Under the pieces are notes generated by a model. That model made no database searches, was not told where the DNA came from, and saw only the letters and a program-made list of their open reading frames with translations. From assembly GCF_003334315.1 (NCBI RefSeq), contig NZ_QOWR01000005.1: a DNA stretch of 64,000 nucleotides. One strand, written 5' to 3'. The position numbers were made by a program, and so were the translations under genes. Source of the DNA: Escherichia coli (GTDB taxonomy: Bacteria > Pseudomonadota > Gammaproteobacteria > Enterobacterales > Enterobacteriaceae). Below, one piece after another: positions 32,661 through 32,676 of this stretch (positions are counted from its first letter, which is position 1; the number at the start of each line of letters is the position of its first letter).

Positions 32661-32676
32661 AAGCAAACGTTTGCGA
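32661..32676 (-). promoter_or_regulatory. PurR operator (pur box) of purMN
   Basis: AAGCAAACGTTTGCGA matches the palindromic consensus ACGCAAACGTTTGCGT at 14 of 16 positions. Confidence 0.65.

Follow-up and report, generated by a model that had tools for sequence, protein, structure and literature searches.

Three boxes upstream of purMN, purC and guaBA match known PurR operators of Escherichia coli

PurR Boxes in the Purine Control Regions

Within the window, i.e., the whole stretch of 64,000 nucleotides of E. coli DNA that was analysed, three 16-bp boxes are located upstream of purMN, purC and guaBA, and we consider it very likely (probability about 0.95) that they are the already known PurR operators of these operons. 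Their identity to published ChIP motifs, their upstream positions and their conservation were computed here; binding of PurR and repression are taken from the literature. An earlier note on this DNA had held that the boxes account for the coordinated control of purine genes and are not novel. The former claim is supported by the ChIP motif identity and the cross-species conservation, and the latter was borne out, the operators being described in the literature already. With these boxes three textbook repressor sites were recognised, by which the control of purine synthesis (purMN, purC) is coordinated with that of the GMP branch (guaBA). The motif score alone failed to separate PurR sites from an equally scoring, probably coincidental match within a coding sequence; promoter position, conservation and ChIP data do separate them.

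Compared with E. coli K-12 MG1655 (41-kb comparison), the window forms one collinear alignment in reverse orientation with 99.48% identity. The genes are arranged in the order guaB-guaA (+), purN-purM (-), upp-uraA (+), hda, yfgD/arsC and bepA, followed by yfgO, the hyf operon, dapA-bamC (+) and purC (+). The operons purMN, purC and guaBA are the only purine-nucleotide operons of the window, and each of them carries a box less than 160 nt upstream (53-153 nt). An 801-nt stretch around the purMN box was matched in 5,426 of 5,426 complete E. coli genomes, with the annotation purM / upp.

All three boxes have the form of a pur box, i.e., a 16-bp imperfect palindrome with GCAA..TTGC half-sites and a central CpG, the latter being present in three of three boxes when these are compared with the perfect palindrome ACGCAAACGTTTGCGT. 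Measured against this palindrome, the purC box carries one mismatch (15/16) and the purMN box two (14/16), and both strings were located exactly where the earlier note had placed them, with the number of matches given there. The guaBA box is a weak match with five mismatches counted from the sequence (11/16). A weaker match near guaB had been announced as well and is indeed present, but its coordinates were one base off: the 17-mer GATGCAATCGGTTACGC, placed at about 19653-19669, is found at 19654-19670, with the box itself beginning at 19655. As the purMN box precedes the purM GTG by 63 nt and is 245 nt away from the ATG of upp (32922), it was assigned to the purMN side. All features are listed in Table 1.

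Table 1. Positions of PurR boxes, promoter elements, coding sequences and further matrix matches in the window. Scores are in bits with the rank in the matrix scan in brackets; published motifs and log2 enrichment with/without adenine are those of the ChIP regions in PMC3159470.
Feature	Position	Strand	Sequence	Score (rank)	Published ChIP motif	log2 enrichment	Remarks
guaBA PurR box	19655..19670		ATGCAATCGGTTACGC	15.1 (4)	GCGTAACCGATTGCAT (guaB-guaA)	0.84 / not detected	53 nt 5' of guaB ATG
guaB promoter -10	19675-19680	+	TATAAT				Invariant in 7 genera
guaB CDS	19724-21190	+					ATG at 19724; guaBA spans 19724..22836
guaA CDS	21259-22836	+					
purN CDS	30922-31560	-					ORF list and RefSeq annotation; purMN operon spans 30922..32597
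purM CDS	31560-32597	-					GTG start at 32597; ORF list and RefSeq annotation of identical/near-identical E. coli genomes
Putative purM -10 hexamer	32649..32654	-	TAGAAT				Within conserved CTGTTAGAAT; from sequence and conservation island beside the operator
purMN PurR operator	32661..32676		AAGCAAACGTTTGCGA on +, TCGCAAACGTTTGCTT in purM orientation	16.9 (3)	TCGCAAACGTTTGCTT (purM-purN)	2.08 / 0.98	Upstream of purM
Match within uraA	34010-34025	-	ACGGCAACGATTGCGC	18.3 (2)			
Match within hda	35545-35560			12.5 (7)			3 palindrome mismatches
yfgO/yfgC ChIP motif	37958-37973	+	CCGGAAGCGATTGCCT	14.0 (6)	CCGGAAGCGATTGCCT (yfgO/yfgC)	1.18 / not detected	
Match within hyfD	48401-48416			14.5 (5)			
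Putative purC -10 hexamer	55999..56004	+	TATGAT				Directly abuts operator; TAAGAT in Salmonella (E. coli/Salmonella alignment)
purC PurR operator	56005..56020		ACGCAAACGTGTGCGT	18.8 (1)	ACGCACACGTTTGCGT (purC)	2.08 / 1.52	153 nt 5' of purC ATG
purC CDS	56174..56887	+					ATG at 56174

Published PurR Occupancy

For E. coli K-12 a ChIP-chip analysis of PurR with 28 motif instances is available (Cho et al., 2011, PMC3159470, Table 1). When the motifs published for purC, purM-purN and guaB-guaA were mapped onto the window, they coincided exactly with the three boxes read on the opposite strand, and the comparison with PurR ChIP data which the earlier note had proposed ended in base-for-base identity for all of them. 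PurR occupancy was higher with adenine at all three regions; purC gave the strongest ChIP signal among the regions of the window and the value of guaBA is the weakest of the published table (PMC3159470). The ranking of purC and purMN as strong and guaBA as weak sites, as previously proposed, is the same as the order of ChIP enrichment. All three operons are counted among the previously characterised PurR targets by Cho et al. (2011), who name purC and purMN in their discussion among the operons repressed by PurR-hypoxanthine (PMC3159470). Moreover, purC, purMN and guaBA are named as purR-regulated in the title of Meng et al. (1990), and a RegulonDB paper mentions footprint evidence for 17 PurR sites.

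The list of PurR sites that we followed up comprised the three boxes confirmed here and omitted a fourth region of the window with reported occupancy, yfgO/yfgC (bepA). The motif of this region reached a matrix score within the range of shuffled sequences. In the current K-12 annotation it is found 45 nt inside the yfgO coding sequence and is not intergenic.

Matrix Scan and Chance Expectation

A PurR log-odds matrix was established from 24 of the 28 motifs of Cho et al. (2011), the four which map inside the window having been removed, and was used to scan both strands of the window (about 128,000 positions). With zero-order p-values of 3e-7 (purC), 8.5e-7 (purMN) and 2.6e-6 (guaBA), all three boxes are below the cut-off of p < 1e-4 that was used in the analysis of Cho et al. 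(2011). The leave-one-out scores of the 24 training sites have a median of 19.8 (minimum 5.3, maximum 25.1); counted from the lowest of these scores, the three boxes fall between ranks 7 and 11. In the calibrated matrix scan all boxes hence remained above threshold, as had been expected, but the score alone does not separate them from the match in uraA.

In 300 dinucleotide-preserving shuffles the best score per shuffled window was 15.9 bits on average with a 95th percentile of 20.1 bits, and for this reason no single match is significant window-wide on its score. The shuffles contained a mean of 0.35 sites of at least 17.0 bits and 0.86 sites of at least 15.1 bits per window; four sites of at least 15.1 bits, the number present in the window, were obtained in 5 of the 300. 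Sites with at most two palindrome mismatches occur twice in the window vs. a shuffle mean of 0.09, and two were reached in 2/300. Per 200-nt region about 0.003 matches are expected, as calculated from the shuffles, and the excess over chance comes from the position of the boxes upstream of purine operons. The limited power of the score in this window agrees with a PhyloScan study, in which only one PurR-significant intergenic region was obtained when E. coli was scanned alone (PMC1794230). Matrix score and ChIP enrichment of the 28 published sites are weakly correlated (Spearman 0.34, p = 0.08), and therefore no quantitative relation between score and occupancy is claimed.

The second-ranking match, situated within uraA, scores about as high as the purC operator and is 15/16 identical to the motif published for the yieG promoter. 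It corresponds to codons 126-131, for the invariant peptide GAIVAV, which is kept in 30 other Enterobacterales with varying synonymous sites, and only five of these reach at least 15 bits. Table 1 of Cho et al. (2011, PMC3159470) contains no ChIP region for this match. A fourth strong operator was consequently rejected on the basis of the synonymous drift and the lack of a reported ChIP peak, and the codon context suggests that the match is probably a coincidence of codons. A 2-fold, purR-dependent change of uraA expression has been described (Cho et al., 2011, PMC3159470). We attach very little credence to the idea that a lineage-specific PurR roadblock at 34010-34025, comparable to the one in purB, would contribute to this approximately 2-fold change, or to the related one that the purMN operator would influence the divergent upp-uraA operon as well. 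The matches in hda and hyfD, both inside coding sequences, are regarded as chance.

Conservation across Species and within E. coli

For the region upstream of purM, 80 loci from species-representative genomes with PurM were compared, ranging from Escherichia albertii to Pseudoalteromonas. The genera were assigned to orders by us, and a box was called if it reached at least 13 bits within 150 nt of purM. It was present in 41/41 Enterobacterales, 10/12 Pasteurellales, 12/12 Vibrionales and 2/2 Aeromonas, i.e., in 65 of the 67 species in orders assigned as PurR-bearing vs. none of the 13 species in other orders (0/2 Orbales and 0/11 Alteromonadales/Shewanella-type genomes). Among control blocks, 12 of 2,377 had a box of at least 13 bits. 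PurR orthologues have been reported in Enterobacterales, Pasteurellales and Vibrionales only (PMC4052901), and Shewanella oneidensis has no PurR orthologue (PMC1794230); the distribution of the predicted purM boxes matches this reported distribution of the repressor. The boxes of Aeromonas caviae (L058) and A. lacus (L072) score 15.4 and 21.8 bits, respectively, and are located about 75 nt upstream of purM. The order to which Aeromonas belongs is absent from the three PurR orders of the 2014 LacI-family survey (PMC4052901).

An alignment of 40 Enterobacterales revealed that the 230 nt upstream of purM are mostly diverged, with the exception of the operator, in which identity exceeds 90% at 15 of the 16 positions. 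The operator is followed by the conserved CTGTTAGAAT and then by the ribosome-binding region. The guaB box is found at the same position in five of six other genera (Salmonella, Yersinia, Proteus, Morganella, and Tatumella), the sixth, Lonsdalea, having a degenerate box; the Salmonella version, ATGCAACCGATTACGT, scores 16.8 bits, above that of E. coli. Upstream of purC a box is present in four of six other genera: the one in Salmonella is identical to that of the strain investigated here, and in Serratia, Pantoea and Morganella strong boxes precede the gene by 48-117 nt. No pur box was found in the 800 nt (Dickeya) and 275 nt (Photorhabdus) of purC upstream sequence.

In both of these genera a box is encountered 3' of purC (Dickeya L092:1517-1532, 22.5 bits; Photorhabdus L093:992-1007, 18.5 bits). 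It starts 2-3 nt past the stop codon, before a hairpin, and the offset agrees between these members of two different families; how a PurR site in such a 3' position would act is not obvious.

Within E. coli, 40-mers centred on the boxes were identical in 5401 of 5425 records for purM, 5420 of 5424 for guaB and 2480 of 5427 for purC, where a further 2945 records had one mismatch. Two nucleotides downstream of the purC box, at 56022, there is a G/T polymorphism (G in this strain, T in K-12), which was also seen in the one sampled genome with one mismatch, the purC box being unchanged there. This polymorphism may account for much of the split between 2480 and 2945 records. In the four variant genomes sampled, one rare change inside a box was detected (56015 G to A); since the polymorphism within the species was sampled in these four genomes, strict invariance of the boxes is not claimed.

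Promoter Context and Mode of Control

Conserved -10 hexamers (TAGAAT, TATGAT, and TATAAT) are located within 0-6 nt of the boxes and the -35 elements are weak. When the three control regions were scanned for consensus sigma-70 promoters, those of purM, purC and guaB were not called because of these weak -35 elements; besides a minus-strand candidate near xseA, the only match was the promoter-like site of upp at 32852-32879. As the scan remained silent, the overlap with promoters was deduced from the conserved -10 hexamers. Each box would accordingly sit on a core promoter, with those of purM and guaB between -35 and -10 and that of purC after the -10 and over the start. PurR sites are generally located between -35 and -10 (Cho et al., 2011, PMC3159470).

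The purM control region, read in the orientation of the gene, has the order TCGCAAACGTTTGCTT-tccctg-TTAGAAT with 6 nt between the end of the operator and the hexamer, and if TAGAAT is the -10, the operator would span roughly -34 to -19. If TATGAT is the -10 of purC, the operator would cover the transcription start of this gene. For guaB, an overlap of box and promoter had been asserted before, and the sequence agrees with this: the box ends 4 nt 5' of TATAAT, and the overlap of a putative PurR site with the core promoter as well as the down-regulation of guaB by PurR were stated by Husnain and Thomas (PMC2885671). Assuming a 17-nt spacer, the -35 of guaB would be TAGATG (19652-19657), and the box would then overlap the last bases of this -35 together with most of the spacer.

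PurR is a dimer of the LacI/GalR family with the corepressors hypoxanthine and guanine. Its helix-turn-helix domains read the GCAA/TTGC half-sites and its hinge helices open the central CpG. Upon accumulation of hypoxanthine and guanine, holo-PurR would bind to each of the 16-bp imperfect palindromes and, because the boxes appear to lie on core promoters, would exclude RNA polymerase from these, resulting in less initiation. The near-consensus operators of purC and purMN would be strongly occupied, even without added adenine, and the degenerate 11/16 box of guaB weakly and only at high corepressor levels. The outcome would be a strong control of the IMP pathway and a mild control of the GMP branch.

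Alternative Explanations

The reading of the guaB box as an operator can be challenged. It might be no working PurR operator but a sequence kept as the spacer between -35 and -10, and the modest effect of purR on guaBA would then be indirect. The guaB promoter is strong and regulated in multiple ways (UP element, FIS, DnaA, CRP), and its whole core is conserved across genera, not just the box, so that this constraint could partly explain the conservation of the latter. Moreover, the box has only 11 of 16 matches, shows the lowest published ChIP enrichment, with adenine only, is called putative in PMC2885671, and with 15.1 bits stays under the average of the best scores from shuffled windows. 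However, a ChIP peak was reported with exactly this motif beneath it; conservation is unusual for a spacer, but five of six other genera retain GCAAYCGRTTAC including the central CG, and the version of Salmonella obtains the higher score. We regard an indirect effect as unlikely, and prefer to see a weak PurR operator in the guaB box.

For the boxes altogether, the assumption of chance matches to a short, degenerate palindrome with no regulatory role may be derived from the similar scores in dinucleotide shuffles and from the comparable matches in uraA, hyfD and hda, the first of which decays at synonymous sites in other genera. The purM box, unlike this decaying match, tracks the assigned PurR orders over 80 species, and all three boxes are identical to ChIP-supported motifs and lie in the short regions preceding the sole purine operons of the window, which leaves chance a practically negligible probability. 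PurR is reported to stem from a duplication of RbsR and to have kept the ancestral DNA motif (PMC4052901), and cross-recognition by RbsR is therefore conceivable. The boxes could in that case be bound mainly by this paralogue or another regulator of the LacI family. The ChIP data are specific for PurR, occupancy increases with adenine, the targets are purine biosynthesis genes, and the purM box is missing in 13/13 species of orders assigned as being without PurR, all of which renders binding mainly by a paralogue exceedingly improbable. The PurR operators of purMN, purC and guaBA remain the preferred explanation for the three boxes.

Comparison with Known Systems

The PurR operators of purMN, purC and guaBA in E. 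coli K-12 were reportedly described by He et al. and Meng et al. in 1990. The boxes of the window have the same sequences, genes and promoter-proximal placement as these and occupy collinear positions. There is no difference inside the boxes; one of the differences from K-12 is the G/T exchange at 56022, 2 nt beyond the purC box. The crystal structure of a PurR-hypoxanthine-DNA complex is said to have been determined by Schumacher et al. in 1994 on the purF operator. This operator belongs to a different operon elsewhere in the genome and is likewise an imperfect palindrome of 16 bp, with CpG at its centre and half-sites of the GCAAAC/GTTTGC type; for the operators of purMN, purC and guaBA we know of no structure.

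The intragenic operators of purB and purR share motif and repressor with the boxes described here. They lie within transcribed or coding regions and act as roadblocks to elongation, whereas the three boxes of the window are found at promoters. The match in uraA resembles the purB site in its position, but has neither a reported ChIP peak nor conservation. In Bacillus subtilis, purine biosynthesis operons are also repressed according to the supply of purines, by PurR via its PurBox; that repressor, however, belongs to an unrelated protein family, recognises another DNA motif and responds to another effector (PRPP). As an effector of the B. subtilis protein (p)ppGpp is mentioned, too (PMC8789054).

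Leader Region of purC

Directly 5' of the putative -10 hexamer of purC, the intrinsic-terminator hairpin of bamC (55968-55989) with its T-run is located. Because this hairpin adjoins the hexamer, the -35 region of purC would fall inside the terminator. The purC leader contains a REP-type palindromic repeat between operator and start codon (56064-56110, core GGATAAGGCGTTCACGCCGCATCC). The leader of Salmonella is without this insert of about 38 nt, which explains the longer distance from operator to ATG in E. coli (153 vs. 115 nt). Further copies of the repeat are found at 35737-35760 and 60784-60807.
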